DNA of 64,000 nucleotides, taken from the NCBI GenBank assembly GCA_013003425.1, contig JABDJB010000017.1:2794-66793 (forward strand), in the 5' to 3' direction. This document shows, piece after piece, positions 45,676-61,739 of this stretch (position 1 is the first letter of the stretch; each line of letters opens with the position of its first letter). A program made the translations under genes and the position numbers. This DNA comes from Gammaproteobacteria bacterium (GTDB lineage Bacteria > Pseudomonadota > Gammaproteobacteria > Steroidobacterales > JABDKV01). The notes below the pieces were generated by a model that saw only the letters and a program-made list of their open reading frames with translations, was not told where the DNA came from and ran no database searches.

Positions 45676-46228
45676 TCGCGCCTGGAAGGCGCTCCTACGG
45701 GAAGGCCGCGTGGGAGCGGCATCCTGCCGCGATTCTTCCAGGCCGCAACCCTGCTTCGTGGGAGCTGCATCCTGCCGCGATTCTTCCAGGCCGCAACCCT
45801 GCTTCGTGGGAGCGGCATCCTGCCGCGATTTTCCAGGCCGCAACCATGCTTCGTAGGAGCGGCATCCTGCCGCGATTCTTCCAGGCCGCAACCCTGCTTC
45901 GTAGGAGCGGCATCCTGCCGCGATTTTCCAGGCCGCGACCATGCTTCGTGGGAGCGGCATCCTGCCGCGATTCTTCCAGGCCGCAACCCTGCTTCGTGGG
46001 AGCGGCATCCTGCCGCGATTCTTCCAGGCCGCGACCCTGCTTCGTGGGAGCGGCATCCTGCCGCGATTTTCCAGGCCGAAACCATGCTTCGTAGGAGCGG
46101 CATCCTGCCGCGATTCTTCCAAATGATCTCTGCGGGTGATTTTGTCGCGCCTGGAAGGCGCTCCCACGGTTTTTCCCGCTTCGTAGGAGCGGCATCCTGC
46201 CGCGATTTTCCAGGCCGCTACCATGCTT
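45676..46228. repeat. REP array: ~9 tandem 47/48-bp units (REP variant GT(G/A)GGAGCGGCATCCTGCCGCGAT + 27-nt spacer) flanked by two GCGCCT/AGGCGC-stem REPs, plus one terminal unit
   Basis: Direct reading finds GGAGCGGCATCCTGCCGCGATT at ~45713, 45761 (one variant), 45809, 45856, 45904, 45951, 45999, 46047, 46094 and 46187. TCGCGCCTGGAAGGCGCTCC(T/C)AC occurs at 45676-45698 and 46145-46167. Fills the whole gap between the AhpD-like stop and the tag start. Confidence 0.9.
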
Positions 46229-46944: not shown

Positions 46945-47358
46945 TCAGGCAGAACCGCCACACTTGCCTTCGCCGCATTTGCCCTCGGCGTCTTTATCGC
47001 CGCCGCACTTGCCTTCACCGCATTTGCCCTCGGCATCTTTATCGCCGCCGCACTTGCCTTCACCGCATTTGCCCTCGGCATCTTTATCGCCGCCGCATTT
47101 GCCTTCGGCATGTTTGTCGCCGCCGCATTTGCCTTCGCAGTCGCCCTTGTTCTTGTCCTTGCGGTCATGGCCCTTGTCGCCGCCACACTTTCCTTCACCA
47201 CACTTGCCCTCGCCGACATCAACCATGTAGCCGCTCGACAGGGTCGTCATGCTGAACGGTGATGCATCAGCTTTGGCGGCCGCACCAACGGCCATGGACG
47301 CTGCCAGTGCAGCGCCCACTGCCAGGCTCAGGGGTTTTACACTCATTTTATCTGACAT
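46945..47358 (-). CDS. secreted EGKCG-repeat Cys-rich peptide, HvfA / bufferin-2-like RiPP metallophore precursor candidate
   Basis: SD GAGGAGAG 6 nt before the ATG. Signal peptide MSDKMSVKPLSLAVGAALAASMAVGAAAKA and conserved block SPFSMTTLSSGYMV. Then 10 x EGKCG plus 1 x GDCE (11 Cys) with DKDA/DKHA linkers, encoded by 45-bp tandem DNA repeats (46950-47215). Confidence 0.7.
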   Translation of the reverse strand: MSDKMSVKPLSLAVGAALAASMAVGAAAKADASPFSMTTLSSGYMVDVGEGKCGEGKCGGDKGHDRKDKNKGDCEGKCGGDKHAEGKCGGDKDAEGKCGEGKCGGDKDAEGKCGEGKCGGDKDAEGKCGEGKCGGSA

Positions 47359-49707: not shown

Positions 49708-50517
49708 ATGACTGATCGCTACGCTGTAATTGGCCACCCGGTGGCGCACAGCCGTTCGCCCGAGATACACGAACACTTTGCGAAGCAAACCGGTCAGCAG
49801 CTTTCCTACGAATTGATCGACTGCGCTCCAGCGGAACTCAACGCAACAGTGGGCCGGTTTTTTTCCGCCGGCGGCAAGGGCCTGAACATTACTGCGCCGC
49901 ACAAACAGTCAGCCTTCCTGCTGGCAGACCTGATCGCAATGCGCGCGCGGGTTGCCGGCGCCGCAAACACGCTCAAGCTGGAAGCCGACGGCCAGATAAG
50001 CGGTGACAATACCGACGGTACCGGTCTGATACGTGACCTGGCGCAAAACCTCGGTCTGGCGCTGTCGGGTCGGCGCATCCTGCTGCTCGGTGCCGGTGGT
50101 GCCGCACGAGGAATACTGGCGCAGCTGCTGGGGCAGCGCCCGGCCGCGCTGGTCATCGCCAACCGGACGCATGAAAAAGCACTGAAGCTCGCTGAGACCT
50201 TCAGCGGCATGGGAAACGTAAGCGCCGGCCGGCTGGAGCGGCTGACGGAGGGCTTTGACCTGATCCTGAACGCCATTGCCAGCGGCCCGGACGATGCCGG
50301 TCCGGCGATCGATCCGGTTGCGGCAACCTCTGCACACTGCTACGACCTGACCTATACCAGCGAAGACACGCCGTTCATGGCGTGGGCGCGCAACAGCAAC
50401 GCCGCATCAGTGCACGACGGCTGGGGCATGCTGGTAGAACAGGCGGCCGAGTCCTTTTACATCTGGCGCAGAGTCTGGCCGGACACCACCGACCTGCTCA
50501 ACCGCAAGCGCATGTAG
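49708..50517 (+). CDS. aroE: shikimate dehydrogenase
   Basis: YAVIGHPVAHSRSPEIH, GLNITAPHKQ, NTDGTGLIRDL, LLLGAGGAARG. The stop TAG is embedded in the first nucleotides of a REP copy. Confidence 0.93.
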   Translation: MTDRYAVIGHPVAHSRSPEIHEHFAKQTGQQLSYELIDCAPAELNATVGRFFSAGGKGLNITAPHKQSAFLLADLIAMRARVAGAANTLKLEADGQISGDNTDGTGLIRDLAQNLGLALSGRRILLLGAGGAARGILAQLLGQRPAALVIANRTHEKALKLAETFSGMGNVSAGRLERLTEGFDLILNAIASGPDDAGPAIDPVAATSAHCYDLTYTSEDTPFMAWARNSNAASVHDGWGMLVEQAAESFYIWRRVWPDTTDLLNRKRM

Positions 50518-50586
50518 GAGCGGCTTCAGCCGCGAACAAACCCCGCGCCGTCTCAAACCACGTGTAGGAGCGGCTTCAGCCGCGAA
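50514..50586 (+). repeat. two direct REP copies (GTAGGAGCGGCTTCAGCCGCGAA) with 50-bp period
   Basis: Identical 23-mers at 50514-50536 and 50564-50586, both followed by CAAACCC. Confidence 0.9.
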
Positions 50587-50641: not shown

Positions 50642-50711
50642 TGCTGGTGGCACGGTACCCAATGAGTGGCAGATGAGCTGCATCGCCGCAGGCGATGTCT
50701 GCTCCATCTGC
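50642..50711. repeat. second repeat family / compound hairpin (GCTGGTGGC..TACCC..GCAGATGAGCTGC-[inner hairpin]-CCATCTGCA); probable terminator between aroE and the gamma-CA gene
   Basis: Outer stem GCAGATGAGC (50669-) / GCTCCATCTGC (50701-50711) and inner stem ATCGCC-gca-GGCGAT. A homologous copy at 57261-57358 has a different inner hairpin. Confidence 0.55.
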
Positions 50712-50712
50712 A

Positions 50713-51340: not shown

Positions 51341-51558
51341 TCGCGGCTGGAAGCCGCTCCCACAATGCATTGCGAACGACCGCCGCTAATCATCGTTCCA
51401 GGCAGTCGCGGCTGGAAGCCGCTCCCACAATGCATCGCGAACGACCGCCGCTAATCATCGTTCCAGGCAGTCGCGGCTGGAAGCCGCTCCCACAATGCAT
51501 TGCGAACGACCGCCGCTAATCATCGTTCCAGGCAGTCGCGGCTGGAAGCCGCTCCCAC
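51341..51558. repeat. REP array: 4 REP cores (TCGCGGCTGGAAGCCGCTCCCAC) in 3 complete 65-bp tandem units
   Basis: Unit starts at 51341, 51406, 51471 and 51536. Each unit also carries a second hairpin GAACGA-N13-TCGTTC. Units differ by a single T/C substitution. Confidence 0.9.
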
Positions 51559-51685
51559 AGAGTCGTTCCCCAGGATGCATCATCGACAATTGCCGAACCG
51601 GCCCGGCCGGTTCGACTCCTTTTACCCTGCCAACCCACCATCAGTCGCGACGCTGACCGCGTTGACGAAGGATGATTGCACTCCA

Positions 51686-51708
51686 TTCGCGGCTGAAGCC
51701 GCTCCTAC
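51686..51708. repeat. solitary REP copy (TTCGCGGCTGAAGCCGCTCCTAC)
   Basis: Exact reverse complement of the canonical 23-mer, 55 nt upstream of the ATG at 51764. Confidence 0.9.
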
Positions 51709-55669: not shown

Positions 55670-56551
55670 TTAAGACGCGGCCATCAACTCGCCGATGAGC
55701 TGGTCCTTCTCCTGCCACAGTTCACGGACCCAGCGCTGGAAGCGCTCGCGAAACTCCGGGTCGTTCAGGTAGTCGCCGCCCAGAAATTCCTGCGGTATCT
55801 CCAGCTGCCGCACCCGCACGATAACCTTGCCGATCTGGCCGGACAGCAGCTCCCAGAATGTGCCACCACCCTGCGGGTAAACGATAGTGACATCGAGTAA
55901 CTTGTGCATGGTTTCGCCCATGGCGGCCAGAGCAAACGCGATGCCGCCCGCCTTGGGGTTCAGCAGGTATTGATACGGTGCGTCCTGTGCCTGGCGCTTT
56001 TCTTCATTGAATCGCGTTCCCTCGACAAAATTTATCAGCGACGTCGGTGTTTCACTGAAGCGGGCACAGGCCTGACGCGTGATCTCCAGGTCCTGACCGC
56101 GCAGTTCCGGGTTCTTGTCGATCTCCGCCCGCGAGTGGCGGTGCATGAAGGGCAGTTCCAGCGCCCACCATGCCAGCCCGAGCAGCGGCACCCAGATCAG
56201 CTGCTTCTTGATAAAAAACTTCAGGAAAGGAATGCGCCGGTTGAAAGTACGTTGCAACACCACGACATCGACCCACGTCTGGTGATTACTGCTTACCAGG
56301 TACCAGTCTCGGCGCCGCAGGTCTTCGTTGCCGGCAATGTCATATTTAATACCGGCCACCGTCGCAATAAAAAAATTATTGCAATCAATCCAGATTTCCC
56401 CAATTGCCTCAAGCCATCGCACGCACAGCCGGCGCCATGCCGCAATTGGAATAATCAGCTTGAGAATGGCAACGACGTAGTAGGGAATGATCCAGAACGT
56501 GAGGTTCAGTACGAACAGGATAAACCCGATGATCCCGCGTATAAGCGTCAC
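55670..56551 (-). CDS. yihG: YihG-like lysophospholipid acyltransferase
   Basis: Collinear with my recollection of E. coli YihG: SNHQTWVDVVVL (HX4D-type), FLKFFIKKQLIWVPLLGLAWWALELPFMHR, NFVEGTRF, WQEKDQLI. Confidence 0.75.
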   Translation of the reverse strand: MTLIRGIIGFILFVLNLTFWIIPYYVVAILKLIIPIAAWRRLCVRWLEAIGEIWIDCNNFFIATVAGIKYDIAGNEDLRRRDWYLVSSNHQTWVDVVVLQRTFNRRIPFLKFFIKKQLIWVPLLGLAWWALELPFMHRHSRAEIDKNPELRGQDLEITRQACARFSETPTSLINFVEGTRFNEEKRQAQDAPYQYLLNPKAGGIAFALAAMGETMHKLLDVTIVYPQGGGTFWELLSGQIGKVIVRVRQLEIPQEFLGGDYLNDPEFRERFQRWVRELWQEKDQLIGELMAAS

Positions 56552-56711
56552 TGCGTTGCACCCTGGCTTCTACTTGTAATCATCCGTCATCCAGGAATCG
56601 CCCACCAGGTAGCAATATTGGGGCCTTGTTGCTGTTTTTCAACACGAGACAGGACCCGGGGGCAAGCACTGTATCCCCCGACTCTGATGCTGCCGTGATG
56701 CTGAAAAAAAT

Positions 56712-57167
56712 TTAAGACTCTGGCGCAACCTTCTGCGCGACGAACGCGAGCGCCACGCTGCCCACAACCGCCATTATTAACATGTCTACCGTCCACCAGA
56801 ACCAGATTTCCCCGGGCAGGTTGAATACACCGGACAAAGACAGGTGATAAACCGCGACGAACAGCGTCAGTGCGACGCCGAAACCGATTCCCTTCTGCCA
56901 CCAGCTGCCGCTGAATGCCGGGCGCAGCCAACTGTAGAGGCCGGCGATAACCAGGGCGCCAATAATCCCGCTGGCAATCCACATTGGCATCAGCGCCGCC
57001 ATGTCCGGCGGCTCGGAAGTCAGCTCGGGGCGCCAGAACTCGGTGGTTTCGTCGTAGGGCGCTTCGAGCACGCCTTCATGAATCACCGGGCCGGTGAATG
57101 CCATCGCAACAACAAACTGCGCGACATACATCGCCAGCCCGCCCAACAGAACGATTTTCCAGTTCAT
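56712..57167 (-). CDS. hypothetical 4-TM membrane protein
   Basis: MNWKIVLLGGLAMYVAQFVVAMAF... with four hydrophobic segments. No family recognised. Confidence 0.45.
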   Translation of the reverse strand: MNWKIVLLGGLAMYVAQFVVAMAFTGPVIHEGVLEAPYDETTEFWRPELTSEPPDMAALMPMWIASGIIGALVIAGLYSWLRPAFSGSWWQKGIGFGVALTLFVAVYHLSLSGVFNLPGEIWFWWTVDMLIMAVVGSVALAFVAQKVAPES

Positions 57168-57229
57168 CTCGATCCCCCCTGCCACTGATTGTGCTCACTA
57201 TAGTGCATCGTCGCGCGTCCGGTTGCGGA

Positions 57230-57628
57230 TTCGCGGCTGAAGCCGCTCCTGCAGGCAGGCGCTGGTGGCTCGTTACCCGGGAAGCAGCAGATGAGCTGCG
57301 CTGCCCCCGGGAAAATGATCCATCAAATGCTGGCGGGCAGCGTCAGCGCCATCTGCAATGTTGGCACCCACCGGTTCGCGGCTGAAGCCGCTCCTACAGG
57401 CGGGGACAGGCAGGTCGCGCGGTACAGGCGGGTACCGTCAGGTCGCGCGGTACAGGCGGGTACCGTCAGGTCGCCCCGGTACAGGCGGGGACAGGCAGGT
57501 CGCCCCGGTACAGGCAGGGACAGGCAGGTCGCCCGGTACAGGCGGGACCGGCTGGTCGCCCGGTTCGCGGCTGAAGCCGCTCCTGCAGGCGGGTACCGGC
57601 AGGTCGTGGCGGCTGAAGCCGCTGCTAC
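57230..57628. repeat. composite repeat region: 4 REP cores, one copy of the GCAGATGAGCTGC hairpin family, and six 27-29-bp REP-less tandem units
   Basis: REP 20-nt cores at 57231-57250, 57376-57395 and 57565-57584, with a degenerate one at 57610-57626. Tandem units ACAGGCGGG..CAGGTCGC..CGGT at 57396, 57424, 57452, 57481, 57510 and 57538. Confidence 0.9.
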
Positions 57629-57662
57629 TGTATATAAGGACAGTATAGGCTATGCTAGGGCG

Positions 57663-60600
57663 GTGAGCCTGGAAGCCTTCCATCCTGCCGTCAGCCAGTG
57701 GTTCAGCGAAACGTTGGGTCGCCCGACCGAGGTACAGCAGCGCGCCTGGCCCAGCATCGGGCTGCGGCGCCATACCCTTCTGGCCGCACCGACCGGTTCG
57801 GGCAAAACGCTGGCAGCGTTTCTGTCAGCCATTGACGACCTGGTACGCGAAGGCCTCGAGCGCGGGCTGCCGGATGAAACCCGTGTGTTGTACATCTCGC
57901 CGTTAAAGGCGCTGTCTAACGATATCCAGAAAAACCTGCAGCAGCCGCTGGAAGGTATCCGCGAAAGGTTGTTCCTGAAATATGCGCCCGGCGATGTGGA
58001 GATTCGCGCCTGGGTACGCACGGGTGACACGCCGGCGCACGAAAGACAAAAGGCAGCGCGCACGCCGCCGCATATTCTTGTTACCACGCCCGAATCGGTT
58101 TACATCCTGCTGACGTCAAAGTCGGGGCGCGAAATGCTGTCGACGGTGCGCACCGTCATTGTCGATGAAATCCACGCGATTGCGGGCAACAAACGTGGCG
58201 CTCACCTGAGCCTGAGCCTTGAACGGCTCGAGGCACTGGTACCGCACCGGCTGGCCCGTGTCGGGCTGTCGGCAACGCAGAAACCGATTGAAGGCATGGC
58301 ACGGTTTCTGGTTGGTAACCGCGATGAGTCGGTGGAAATCATTGACACAACACAGGTGTTTGCCGGCGAGGCCGGGGCACCGGCGCAACGGCCGGACATC
58401 GCCCTTGAAATACCGCGCTCTCCGCTGGCAACCATCATGTCGAACGAGGAGTGGATCGAAACCTACGACCGGCTCACTGAGTTAATCGAAGCACACAAGA
58501 CTACGCTGATTTTTGTTAACACACGGCGGCTGGCGGAACGCGCCGCGCGTCACCTTGCCGAACGAATCGGTGAAGAGTTTGTCACTGCGCACCACGGTTC
58601 ACTGTCGCGCAAGCACCGGCTGCGCGCCGAACAAAAGCTGAAAAACGGCCAGCTCAAGGCACTGGTTGCCACTGCATCACTGGAGTTGGGAATAGATATT
58701 GGCGACGTTGACCTGGTATGCCAGCTGGGCTCGCCGCGCTCGATTTCCGCATTTGTCCAAAGGGTTGGCCGCTCGGGCCACGCCGTGGGCGCAACGCCGA
58801 AGGGCCGACTGTTCCCGCTGTCACAGGACGACCTGGTTGAGTGCACCGCCATCACCGGCTGCGTCGAACGTGGCGAACTCGATCGCATCGCGATCCGCGA
58901 CAAGCCACTGGACGTACTGGCACAGCAAATTGTAGCCGAGGTTGCCGGGAAAGAGTGGGAAACCGAAGCGCTGTGGAAGGCGCTGCGCTGCGCATGGCCG
59001 TACCGCACGTTGAGGCGCGAAGAGTTTGACAACGTGATCAATATGCTGGCGCAGGGCTTTTCTACCCGTCGTGGCCGACGTGGCGCCCATATCCATCACG
59101 ATGCGGTTAACGGCCGGGTGCGGCCACGACGCGGTGCGCGCATTGTGTCGATGACCAATGGCGGCGCCATACCCGACCAGTTCGAGTACGAAGTAATACT
59201 GCAGCCGGAAGATGCGCGCATCGGCACACTGGGTGAGGATTTCGCTTTCGAAAGCCTGCCGGGCGATATCTTCCAGCTCGGCAACATGTCGTACCAGATA
59301 CAAAAAGTTGAAACCGGCCGGGTTTTTGTTACCGATGCGAACGGCCAGCCGCCCAACCTGCCGTTCTGGGTTGGCGAAGCACCGGGACGGTCTGACGAGT
59401 TGTCGCTTGCAGTATCCGATTTGCGCGGCGAAGTTGATGAACAACTGGATAACGGTCATCAGCATACCGTCGGCTGGCTGACTGAAAACTTCGGGCTGCA
59501 GCCGGAAGCGGGCACACAGCTGGTCGATTACCTGGCCAGCGCAAAGGCAGCGCTGGGCCTGGTGCCGACGCAGCAACACATTGTTTTCGAGCGGTTTTTT
59601 GATGATGCCGGCGACATGCATTTCATCATTCATGCACCGTTCGGTTCGCGCGCGAACCGTGCCTGGGGGCTGGCGCTGCGCAAGCGCTTTTGCCGCAAAT
59701 TCAACTTTGAACTGCAGGCAGCCGCGATGGAAGACTCGCTGGTGTTGTCGCTGGGGCCGACACACAGCTTTCCCATGGAAGAAGTTGCCGGTTATCTCAA
59801 AAGCCAGACGGCGCGCAAAGTACTGACGCAGGCCTTGCTCGACGCGCCAATGTTTGGCGCGCGCTGGCGCTGGAATGCAACCATTGCGCTGGCAGTGAGA
59901 CGCAATCGCAACGGCAAACGCGTGCCGCCACAGTGGCAGCGCAGTGATGCCGAAGACCTGGTCGCGCTGGTTTTTCCCGACCAGCTCGCCTGCCTCGAAA
60001 ACATCCCGGGTGAACGTGAGATACCCGATCACCCGCTGGTCAACCAGACCATTGCCGACTGCATGACCGAGACGATGGATATCGAAGCGCTGGAACAAAT
60101 CCTGCAGCGCCTCGAAGATGACGCTATCAGCGTTAAGTGCTGCGACCTGACCGGACCCTCGCCATTGTCGCAGGGCGTGATCAATGCCCGGCCCTATGCC
60201 TTCCTCGACGATGTGCCGGCGGAGGAGCGGCGTACGCTGGCCATCAGCTCGCAACGCTTCAGCGAGCCCGATGAAGCGGCGAAACTGGGCCGGCTCGACG
60301 CAGACGCCATTAAAGAAGTATGCGAACAGGCCTGGCCGGAACCGCGCACGGCGGACGAACTGCATGACGCGCTTTATGTGCTCGGCTTTATTGCGCAAGC
60401 AGAAACTGAACCCGCAAGCGACAACCTGGAATTTGGCTGGCAGCACCTGTTCGAACAGCTGGTCGGCGAAAAGCGTGCCTGCGTGATGTCCACCGGCGGC
60501 GGCGATATCTGGGCCTGCACTGAACGGTTGGCAGAAATGCGCGCAATACTGCCGGACGCAGTCTGCACGCCTGAGCTGCCGCTCGCCACGGTGGAAGTTG

Positions 60601-61739
60601 ATCCGGATACCGCGCTGGTCGATGTAATCCGCAGCCGGCTGGAAGGACTTGGCCCGGTCACTGCTGACTCACTGGCCAGACCGCCTGGCATAGATGTCGC
60701 ACGCATCGACCAGGCATTGCTGGCACTGGAAAACGAAGGCTTCGCCGTGCGTGGCCGCTTCACCGGTACTTCCGGTGACGCGCTGGAATGGTGCGACCGA
60801 CGATTGCTGGCGCGCATCCATCGCTACACCATCAAGAAAGCCCGCAAGGCCGTGCAGCCGGTTTCGAAAGCCGCCCATGCCCGCTTTACCGTGACCTGGC
60901 AGGGTGTCGGCCGCGACCGTGAAGGCCTGGCCGCCTTGCAGGCCGTGCTGGAACAGCTGGAAGGCTTTGCTGCCCCCGCACGCGCCTGGGAAAAAGAAAT
61001 TCTGCCCGCACGCATTGCCGGCTACCGCCCGGAGATGCTCGACCAGCTCTGCTCGGCCGGTCGTTTCACCTGGCTGCGTCTTGGCGCAAAAGCAAAGCCG
61101 GGCAAACGCATCCGGCCGGTACGCACAACACCGATAACCCTGATCGAACGCAGCAACCTGTCACACTGGCGGTTGTTCGGCGCACCACCCGCAGCCGATG
61201 TCATCGAGCTGACTGATAACGCACGCAGCGTGCATGGGATGCTGGCCGATCGTGGCGCATCGTTTTTCAGCGACCTGGTGCTCGACCTCGACCTGAAACA
61301 GCGTGACGTACGCGATGCCATGGCCGAGCTGGTCGCCTGGGGGCTGGTTACTTCAGACAGCTTTGCCGGGATCCGTTCGCTGGCGATGCGCCGTCCGCGA
61401 CTGGCCGACGGCCGCCGGCACTTGTCGCTGGAAGATGCCGGGCGCTGGTCCCTGCTGCGGCCACCGGCTGATGACGACGAGGCCCGCCAGGCCGCGATCG
61501 AGCATATCGGCCGCAAGCTGCTGGACCGCCACGGGGTTCTGTTCCGCAAAACGCTCGACGGCGAGCGTTTCCTGCCGCCATGGCGCGATCTGCTGCGGAT
61601 TTACTGGCGGCTCGAAGCACGAGGCGAGATTCGTGGCGGACGCTTTGTCACCGGCTACTCCGGGGAGCAGTTCGCACTGCCTGCTGCCATCCCGCTGCTA
61701 CGTCAGCAAACTCGCGATGCAACAAGTGACACGGCTTAA
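57663..61739 (+). CDS. lhr: Lhr-type large ATP-dependent DEAD/DEAH-box helicase
   Basis: FHPAVSQWFSETLGRPTEVQQRAWP, AAPTGSGKTLAAFL, VIVDEIHA, GLSATQ, HHGSLSRKHR, VATASLELGIDIG, then a long Lhr C-terminal extension. Start set at in-frame GTG 57663, because the 124 upstream codons of the track ORF are REP and tandem-repeat sequence. Confidence 0.9.
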   Translation: MSLEAFHPAVSQWFSETLGRPTEVQQRAWPSIGLRRHTLLAAPTGSGKTLAAFLSAIDDLVREGLERGLPDETRVLYISPLKALSNDIQKNLQQPLEGIRERLFLKYAPGDVEIRAWVRTGDTPAHERQKAARTPPHILVTTPESVYILLTSKSGREMLSTVRTVIVDEIHAIAGNKRGAHLSLSLERLEALVPHRLARVGLSATQKPIEGMARFLVGNRDESVEIIDTTQVFAGEAGAPAQRPDIALEIPRSPLATIMSNEEWIETYDRLTELIEAHKTTLIFVNTRRLAERAARHLAERIGEEFVTAHHGSLSRKHRLRAEQKLKNGQLKALVATASLELGIDIGDVDLVCQLGSPRSISAFVQRVGRSGHAVGATPKGRLFPLSQDDLVECTAITGCVERGELDRIAIRDKPLDVLAQQIVAEVAGKEWETEALWKALRCAWPYRTLRREEFDNVINMLAQGFSTRRGRRGAHIHHDAVNGRVRPRRGARIVSMTNGGAIPDQFEYEVILQPEDARIGTLGEDFAFESLPGDIFQLGNMSYQIQKVETGRVFVTDANGQPPNLPFWVGEAPGRSDELSLAVSDLRGEVDEQLDNGHQHTVGWLTENFGLQPEAGTQLVDYLASAKAALGLVPTQQHIVFERFFDDAGDMHFIIHAPFGSRANRAWGLALRKRFCRKFNFELQAAAMEDSLVLSLGPTHSFPMEEVAGYLKSQTARKVLTQALLDAPMFGARWRWNATIALAVRRNRNGKRVPPQWQRSDAEDLVALVFPDQLACLENIPGEREIPDHPLVNQTIADCMTETMDIEALEQILQRLEDDAISVKCCDLTGPSPLSQGVINARPYAFLDDVPAEERRTLAISSQRFSEPDEAAKLGRLDADAIKEVCEQAWPEPRTADELHDALYVLGFIAQAETEPASDNLEFGWQHLFEQLVGEKRACVMSTGGGDIWACTERLAEMRAILPDAVCTPELPLATVEVDPDTALVDVIRSRLEGLGPVTADSLARPPGIDVARIDQALLALENEGFAVRGRFTGTSGDALEWCDRRLLARIHRYTIKKARKAVQPVSKAAHARFTVTWQGVGRDREGLAALQAVLEQLEGFAAPARAWEKEILPARIAGYRPEMLDQLCSAGRFTWLRLGAKAKPGKRIRPVRTTPITLIERSNLSHWRLFGAPPAADVIELTDNARSVHGMLADRGASFFSDLVLDLDLKQRDVRDAMAELVAWGLVTSDSFAGIRSLAMRRPRLADGRRHLSLEDAGRWSLLRPPADDDEARQAAIEHIGRKLLDRHGVLFRKTLDGERFLPPWRDLLRIYWRLEARGEIRGGRFVTGYSGEQFALPAAIPLLRQQTRDATSDTA

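Follow-up and report, generated by a model that had tools for sequence, protein, structure and literature searches.

A minisatellite of REP-less linkers within a GTAG-1 REP cluster upstream of lhr in an uncultured gammaproteobacterium

The spread and loss of REPs are a matter of debate, with regard both to the unit concerned, REPIN doublets or single REPs, and to the agent, RAYT chemistry or errors of host replication. The 35-bp REP of P. putida belongs with the Pseudomonas/Xanthomonas-type GTAG-1 REPs. REP clusters are usually found downstream of genes, and it is less typical for them to fill the promoter region of two divergent genes. GTAG-1 REPs consist of an unpaired terminal GT[AG]G tag, GW extra bases, a stem, a loop and a 3-bp tail (Table 1 in Di Nocera et al. 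2013, PMC3733652), with a G+C-rich palindrome that has a stem of 5-13 bp and a loop of 2-20 nt (PMC3733652), and head-to-tail REP arrays that include flanking DNA are well described (PMC3733652; PMC3116915). In P. fluorescens SBW25, the footprint of an excised REPIN is asymmetric and retains ~6 bp of invariant sequence (PMC3116915). In the case of E. coli TnpA-REP, site II of the iREP was mapped at (G/T)NCC^TAC, within CTAC (Ton-Hoang et al. 2012, PMC3333891), and C^T proved to be necessary and sufficient for cleavage (Messing et al. 2012, PMC3479197).

The cluster described here lies in a window of 64,000 nt, by which the whole stretch of DNA that was analyzed is meant, within the 495-nt gap (57168-57662) between the divergent genes for a 151-aa protein and Lhr. 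Its features are as follows (a slash marks the joint between two linkers):

56712..57167, minus strand: gene for a predicted membrane protein of 151 aa, divergent from lhr, no Pfam match
57196-57203: conserved CACTATAG motif in the upstream region of the 151-aa-protein gene
57230..57252, minus strand: REP copy 1, GTAG-1, with exact 20-nt core and a GCAG head, not GTAG
57253..57362, plus strand: copy of a second repeat family of ~110 nt, GCTGGTGGC.CG.TACCC-N8-GCAGATGAGCTGC...CCATCTGCA (2 matches in the window, 0 expected)
57375..57397, minus strand: REP copy 2, canonical 23-nt GTAGGAGCGGCTTCAGCCGCGAA, left border of the minisatellite
57396..57564, plus strand: minisatellite of six REP-less linker units of 27-29 bp with five junctions CGGT/ACAGGC
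57564..57586, minus strand: REP copy 3, with exact core and variant GCAG head, right border of the minisatellite
57585..57606, plus strand: seventh linker unit GCAGGCGGGTACCGGCAGGTCG, 22 nt (6 nt short), between REP copies 3 and 4
57606..57628, minus strand: REP copy 4, with a core (57607-57626) carrying 2 mismatches and a CTAC head at 57625-57628
57626..57645, plus strand: predicted LexA (SOS) box TACTGTATATAAGGACAGTA, 17 nt upstream of the lhr start codon, at the right edge of the cluster
57663..61739, plus strand: lhr, 1358 aa, start codon GTG at 57663 (Pfam: DEAD, Helicase_C, WHD_Lhr, DEAD_assoc)

Contig JAHHNS010000067.1 of assembly GCA_018677295.1, an uncultured 'Gammaproteobacteria bacterium' MAG, is identical to the window. 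Although its REP is Pseudomonas-like, the organism does not belong to Pseudomonas. Look-ups of the exact 151-aa protein and Lhr sequences returned no more than a pair of identical MAG assemblies and two short contigs from Logan, of which one, L002 (run SRR11195981), ends at the first REP, at 57250. Because the source is a MAG and this contig ends there, the number of linker units is less certain than the junction between them. The closest homologue of the 151-aa protein among 5.8 billion sequences searched is 71% identical.

Identity and extent of the REP

On the minus strand, the repeat reads GTAG-GA-GCGGC-TTCA-GCCGC-GAA (23 nt) and is thus composed of a GTAG tag, GA as the 'GW' extra bases, a 5-bp stem, a 4-nt loop and a 3-nt tail. 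The tag is read from the reverse complement of the 20-mer extended by two bases, GTAGGAGCGGC..., the GA stands between GTAG and the stem GCGGC, and the tail GAA is present in 7/7 window copies, its third base being variable in other genomes. On the plus strand, CTAC follows the stem at 57376, 51687, 50516 and 50566, and the variant GCAG is found at 57231 and 57565. The stem-loop GCGGC-TTCA-GCCGC folds as single-stranded DNA with -6.0 kcal/mol and an ensemble frequency of 0.97, and its G+C-rich stem and its loop fall within the ranges given for the GTAG-1 family. The repeat upstream of lhr is hence a genuine REP of the RAYT-associated GTAG class (GTAG-1).

The exact 20-mer TCGCGGCTGAAGCCGCTCCT, which the initial annotation had taken for the REP core, occurs at 57376-57395, 57565-57584, 57231, 51687 (plus strand), 50516 and 50566 (both minus strand). 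Together with variants carrying two mismatches at 57607 and 4150, this makes 8 matches in the window against 0 expected. In total, the 64-kb window holds 8 copies of this REP, type A, and 14 copies of two sister subtypes. Among the matches listed, hosts of the 20-mer include Pseudomonas entomophila, Xanthomonas, Lysobacter, Stenotrophomonas, Rhodanobacter, Luteimonas and many MAGs, and the listed copies in other genomes often form inverted doublets.

The 20-mer is 3 nt shorter than the true repeat. This becomes evident from the flanks of 180 copies at at least 120 loci in other genomes (scanned with one genome per species), in which the first base after the 20-mer is A in 91% of the copies (G in 9%) and the second is C in 98%, followed by A or G and then by G. 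On the head side, the conserved repeat thus reaches 2-4 nt beyond the 20-mer throughout the family. The base preceding the 20-mer is not conserved in these copies, and the tail T is conserved only among those of the window. The copies at lhr are identical to unrelated ones at 50.5 and 51.7 kb over 25-26 nt. The 20-nt 'core' therefore splits the GTAG tag in half, and a junction from which it is missing, GGT/ACAGG, still keeps REP bases, namely the tail T and half of the tag, given the A (91%) and the C (98%) that follow the 20-mer family-wide. Since the tag is cut in this way, the locus does not yield the exact boundaries of a dispersed or mobile unit that had been read from it: at 23 nt, and with matches of 25-26 nt inside the window, the conserved repeat exceeds the indel in length.

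Two further REP arrays, each of a different GTAG-1 subtype, are present in the window. The first (45.7-46.2 kb, 45709-46205) comprises ten REPs with a GTGG head and an ATCCT loop, placed in or next to an array with a 48-bp period, and the second (51341-51559) four REPs with a GTGG head, a TTCCA loop and a 65-bp period. Nearly all REPs in the window are arranged head-to-tail, and inverted REPIN doublets do not dominate. The 48-bp period proposed to connect the first array (45.7-46.1 kb) with the cluster at lhr does recur in both, but the connection itself is lost, as the REPs belong to a different subtype and the array at 45.7 kb runs in the opposite orientation. A shared origin was also rejected on account of the spacers, which are unrelated (their local alignment score was matched by 1188/2000 shuffles). 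With unrelated spacers and opposite orientation, the matching periods are coincidental.

Several other repeats are worth mentioning. The second repeat family has its other copy at 50643-50712; REPs adjoin both copies, which form a long imperfect hairpin. Inverted REPs at 50516-50585 and 51687-51706 bracket a 1.1-kb segment, a possible place for a RAYT, which encodes a 174-aa protein that by eye appears hexapeptide-repeat-like (gamma-carbonic-anhydrase/YrdA-like); the gene lies downstream of a putative aroE. An ORF at 46945-47358 (minus strand) encodes a small protein that consists mostly of GEGKCGGDKDA-type repeats, contains a tandem array at 46955-47137 with 45-nt and 30-nt DNA repeats and adjoins a sigma-factor/anti-sigma-like gene pair. 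In other genomes, partial REPs repeated three times in tandem directly abut full REPs: three copies of GCCGCTCCTACG, which correspond to right arm plus CTAC head, at L042 3510-3545, and three copies of TCCGTGGGAGCGCCTT, corresponding to head plus left arm, at L094 7077-7123. Slippage or processing of partial REPs at REP edges seems to be recurrent.

Copied junctions and the lineage-specific cluster

Tandem Repeats Finder (TRF) reports a single array at 57395-57564 with a period of 28, 6.0 copies and 90% matches. Its units start at 57396, 57424, 57452, 57481, 57510 and 57538 and measure 28, 28, 29, 29, 28 and 27 nt, which, together with the coordinates of the flanking REPs, bears out the anatomy first noted for the locus: six units of 27-29 bp joined as CGGT/ACAGGC, with the 20-nt core splitting the same junction at both ends of the run. 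The 'empty' linker-linker junctions are of the type CGGTACAGG, and their decamer CGGTACAGGC occurs five times in the window (0.13 expected), each time within this array, so that the dispersed empty sites for which a census had been proposed are absent from the window. The 'filled' junctions are CGGT[core]ACAGGCGGG and CGGT[core]GCAGGCGGG. Compared with the empty ones, they contain exactly 20 nt more, the target is not duplicated and microhomology amounts to only 1 nt, and to this extent the formal relation of filled and empty sites stands; the sites compared are, however, paralogous repeat units inside one array and not orthologous sites. Due to a T on both sides, placement of the indel is ambiguous by 1 nt, with GG[TTCGCGGCTGAAGCCGCTCC]TACAGG as the alternative, i.e. 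either T^[TCGC...CTCCT]^A or G^[TTCGC...GCTCC]^TAC.

Searches for other elements gave no match to an Rfam family over 56500-58200 and no sigma-70 promoter in the lhr intergenic region. The fold of the array as single-stranded DNA is no better than that of shuffled sequences (z = -0.86), and hairpins across the linker-linker junctions are not significant.

The junctions themselves are repetitive. An exact run of period 28 extends over 64 nt (57411-57474) and an exact run of period 29 over 49 nt (57467-57515), both covering linker-linker junctions. As these runs span the junctions, the five empty sites are not independent of each other. Coded by middle (g, t or x) and tail (a, b or c), the units read (g,a)(t,a)(t,b)(g,b)(g,c)(x,c), a mosaic of the kind predicted for slippage combined with unequal exchange. 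They differ from each other at 2-5 positions and from two linker-like sequences outside the array at 8-12. Hence, the array combines head-to-tail units, exact runs longer than one unit and mosaic variants, as expected of a slipped-strand minisatellite. The A variant of the REP head is found in 5/5 empty junctions and G in 2/3 REP-adjacent heads. With junctions copied by slippage, a single founding loss of a REP hairpin is enough, and the excision of REP cores from five consecutive units that the initial annotation had considered is not needed. Gene conversion could also have homogenized junctions that arose independently.

The linker unit is absent from the rest of the window. A metagenome scan with its pattern (GGTACAGGCGGG-N7-CAGGTCGC) returned 10 single matches and no arrays, in sequence that is apparently unrelated and non-repetitive, and these ten are chance matches. 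Around 255 REP copies, no further filled/empty pair was found; the locus upstream of lhr alone qualified.

The origin of the cluster can be narrowed down with the help of four REP-free relatives, in which the corresponding intergenic gap measures 62-214 nt (495 nt here) and contains no REP:

L136, 1401-1462: intergenic region of relative L136/L137 (71% identity)
L145, 203-416: intergenic region of relative L145 (71% identity)
L141, 987-1107: intergenic region of relative L141 (57% identity)
L138, 2374-2500: intergenic region of relative L138-140 (56% identity)

Two blocks are conserved in these relatives, CACTATAG near the small gene and a LexA-type box plus GCTATGCT before lhr. The box TACTGTATATAAGGACAGTA is a strong one and agrees with the E. 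coli-type LexA consensus at 17/20 positions. Since both the box and GCTATGCT have been kept in all four relatives, lhr is probably under SOS control in this clade via the predicted LexA box. At the right edge of the cluster, the box shares its TAC with the CTAC head of the last REP, and this CTAC (57625-57628) coincides with a C-TAC that the two closest REP-free relatives already have at the box (L136, GCCTACTG; L145, GCGCTACTG).

As the relatives hold only 62-214 nt between the two genes, the ~410-nt cluster (~57216 to 57625) is a lineage-specific accretion, made up of four REPs, the ~110-nt copy of the second repeat and the minisatellite. The second repeat shows no homology to the unique intergenic DNA of the closest relatives, and these (L136 and L145, 71% protein identity) contain nothing resembling the 28-bp linker. 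This argues against a minisatellite that was already in place and later received REPs. A unique stretch of L138, ACACGCAAATCGCCCGGGGTAGGCAGGA, matches the sequence across the linker-linker junction at 21/28 positions, with 15/1000 shuffles as good (p ~0.015); the match is marginal after multiple comparisons and is treated here as due to chance.

A probable founding deletion and its alternatives

A history that we consider probable, with some reserve, is that of four ordinary GTAG-1 REPs in head-to-tail order, whose linker turned into a REP-less minisatellite after the loss of a single REP hairpin. Only in this lineage would REPs have built up in the non-transcribed stretch that separates the promoters of two divergent genes, the one for the membrane protein and the putatively SOS-regulated lhr. 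The cluster would have grown by tandem amplification of a REP-plus-linker unit of ~48 bp, like the two other REP arrays in the window. With the exception of the last (57607), every REP of the cluster, including the copy at 57231 outside the array, is followed by a linker-like head (directly after REP copy 1 by a diverged version, GCAGGCAGGCGCTGGTGGCTCG), which fits such a co-amplification. Then, one junction may have lost its REP hairpin once, the missing 20 nt corresponding to the 14-nt stem-loop and the 3 nt that flank it at either end, and two 28-bp linkers would have become neighbors. Direct repeats that adjoin each other are prone to replication slippage and unequal exchange, by which the number of linkers may have risen to six and their variants been shuffled. 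While the anatomy, the full length of the REP, the copying by slippage and the lineage-specific origin of the cluster are shown, it is this order of events, with one founding deletion, that we infer from the array, and parsimony leads us to infer loss rather than gain of a REP.

How the founding deletion came about is less clear-cut. A replication or repair error at the hairpin appears somewhat the likelier source, with cleavage by a RAYT at CC^TAC and subsequent strand transfer to a 3'-OH not far behind. This near balance reflects the weakness of the boundary coincidences on which a RAYT origin relies, the near lack of microhomology, the weak hairpin and the fact that excision of singlets was not found by Bertels and Rainey. 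A plain slippage origin is strained by a microhomology of only 1 nt, which would be unusual, and a 5-bp hairpin (-6 kcal/mol) is a weak obstacle to a polymerase.

Conceivably, a RAYT founded the junction, although as a full account of the locus this is rather unlikely. The CTAC-bearing strand of one REP, for which the plus-strand sequence ...CCCGGTTCGCGGCTGAAGCCGCTCCTACAGGCGGG... is the putative substrate, would have been cut at CC^TAC, and the resulting 5'-phosphotyrosine end (TACAGG...) would have joined the upstream 3'-OH ending in ...CCCGG, whereby the hairpin was removed precisely. RAYT chemistry may afterwards have multiplied the linker in the manner of the 'amplification' model by Ton-Hoang et al., with slippage acting later. 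Indeed, one of the two placements of the indel has CC^TAC as its right boundary, which equals iREP site II of E. coli TnpA-REP (PMC3333891), the periodic array starts at the T of CC^TAC (TRF start 57395), and the target is not duplicated, with homology limited to 1 nt. The cluster likewise has its right edge on the C-TAC that is already present in the two closest REP-free relatives, and any free 3'-OH was proposed to resolve the covalent intermediate (Messing et al., PMC3479197). The left boundary is, however, G^T or T^T and not the C^T that the E. coli enzyme requires (PMC3333891, PMC3479197), and ~56 million reads revealed excisions of REPIN doublets but none of a REP singlet (Bertels and Rainey, PMC3116915). 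Moreover, coincidences of this type carry little weight, as any REP edge lies near CTAC. Neither motif regexes nor tblastn with E. coli RayT detected a RAYT in the window or in the at least 120 related loci that were fetched, and inspection of the ORFs adjoining the REP clusters at 45-48 kb, 50-52 kb, L045 and L060 likewise gave none.

An extended version, which is quite unlikely, would interpret the linker-linker junction as the donor joint left when a RAYT, cutting at CC^TAC, removed a single REP hairpin, and would have the entire cluster enter the lhr operator by strand transfer at the ancestral C^TAC of the LexA box. If true, it would provide in-genome evidence that a GTAG-1 RAYT processes REP singlets, and not only REPIN doublets, at the site known from E. 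coli in vitro.

The reverse sequence of events, in which a 28-bp minisatellite came first and served as a target for 20-nt REP cores inserting at GGT^(A/G)CAGG, as had been suggested for the locus, appears improbable. The lack of a target duplication would agree with insertion of the IS200/IS605 type, and the L138 stretch does resemble a linker-linker junction; as noted above, however, that match is marginal, and the REP-free relatives have neither the array nor the target, the two closest being free of linker-like sequence altogether. Furthermore, the AC that follows the core is part of the REP in 98% of the copies in other genomes. At REPs 57231 and 57607, the proposed target is missing from one side, and all REPs of the cluster share one orientation and one phase.

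It is very improbable that the array or its REP-less junctions arose by short-read misassembly in a repeat-rich region of a MAG. Such an artefact would be in line with the source and with the Logan contig that stops at the first REP (57250), and the agreement of the two MAG assemblies may stem from shared reads and methods. De Bruijn assemblers, however, do not invent k-mers, and those of the junction must thus exist in reads; the units also differ by variants along which the array can be traversed, and the two assemblies are identical over the region, even though the copy number could still be wrong. Had the 20-nt core been precisely excised from five consecutive units of REP plus linker in five independent events, this would account for five junctions that all read CGGTACAGGC, exactly one 20-mer away from the filled ones, but such events are scarcely credible given the exact 28-/29-bp periodic runs that make the junctions copies of each other, the A variant in 5/5 of them against G in 2/3 flanking REPs, the unit mosaic expected from slippage and unequal exchange, and the poor parsimony of five identical rare events in a row.

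Comparison with known REP systems

The preferred history, with one hairpin lost and its junction multiplied by slippage, leaves the cluster close to what has been described. Like other GTAG-1 REPs (PMC3733652), those of the window have an unpaired GTAG tag, GA extra bases, a 5-bp G+C stem, a 4-nt loop and a 3-nt tail, and they occur as singletons, dimers and tandem clusters. Unlike in the other genomes listed, where inverted doublets are frequent, nearly all window copies are head-to-tail, and this cluster lies between divergent genes, whereas REPs are mostly found downstream of genes. It represents a recent, lineage-specific filling of a divergent promoter region, by which the conserved LexA box of lhr in this clade came to be abutted by a REP.

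The precise loss of a palindrome with asymmetric retention of a few conserved REP bases is reminiscent of REPIN excision in P. fluorescens SBW25 (Bertels and Rainey 2011, PMC3116915). There, however, inverted doublets were removed and the events were observed as such, whereas here a single REP hairpin is missing and one fixed junction was copied by slippage. With regard to E. coli TnpA-REP in vitro (PMC3333891, PMC3479197), the C^T cut inside CTAC on the iREP strand corresponds to the permitted right boundary of the indel and to the edge of the cluster at the LexA box, but the left boundary is not C^T. Loss of a single REP hairpin, possibly RAYT-mediated, is therefore a reasonable but unproven founding event. 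A junction that is one REP hairpin apart from its neighbors, and whose boundary can be placed at a RAYT cut site, is a useful anecdote for the debate on REPs, even if a single fixed event, copied by slippage and known from one MAG, settles nothing in it. The practical value is modest and consists in corrected repeat boundaries.

The closest counterparts are tandem REP clusters with flanks, for which the window itself offers a 48-bp and a 65-bp example. With these the cluster shares REPs of one orientation and a conserved linker amplified as a unit; it departs from them in that five consecutive units are without a REP and the linker alone is repeated, an arrangement for which no description was found in the papers on REPs cited here. 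The cluster upstream of lhr is thus a minor variant of known REP clusters, and not evidence for five REP excisions.
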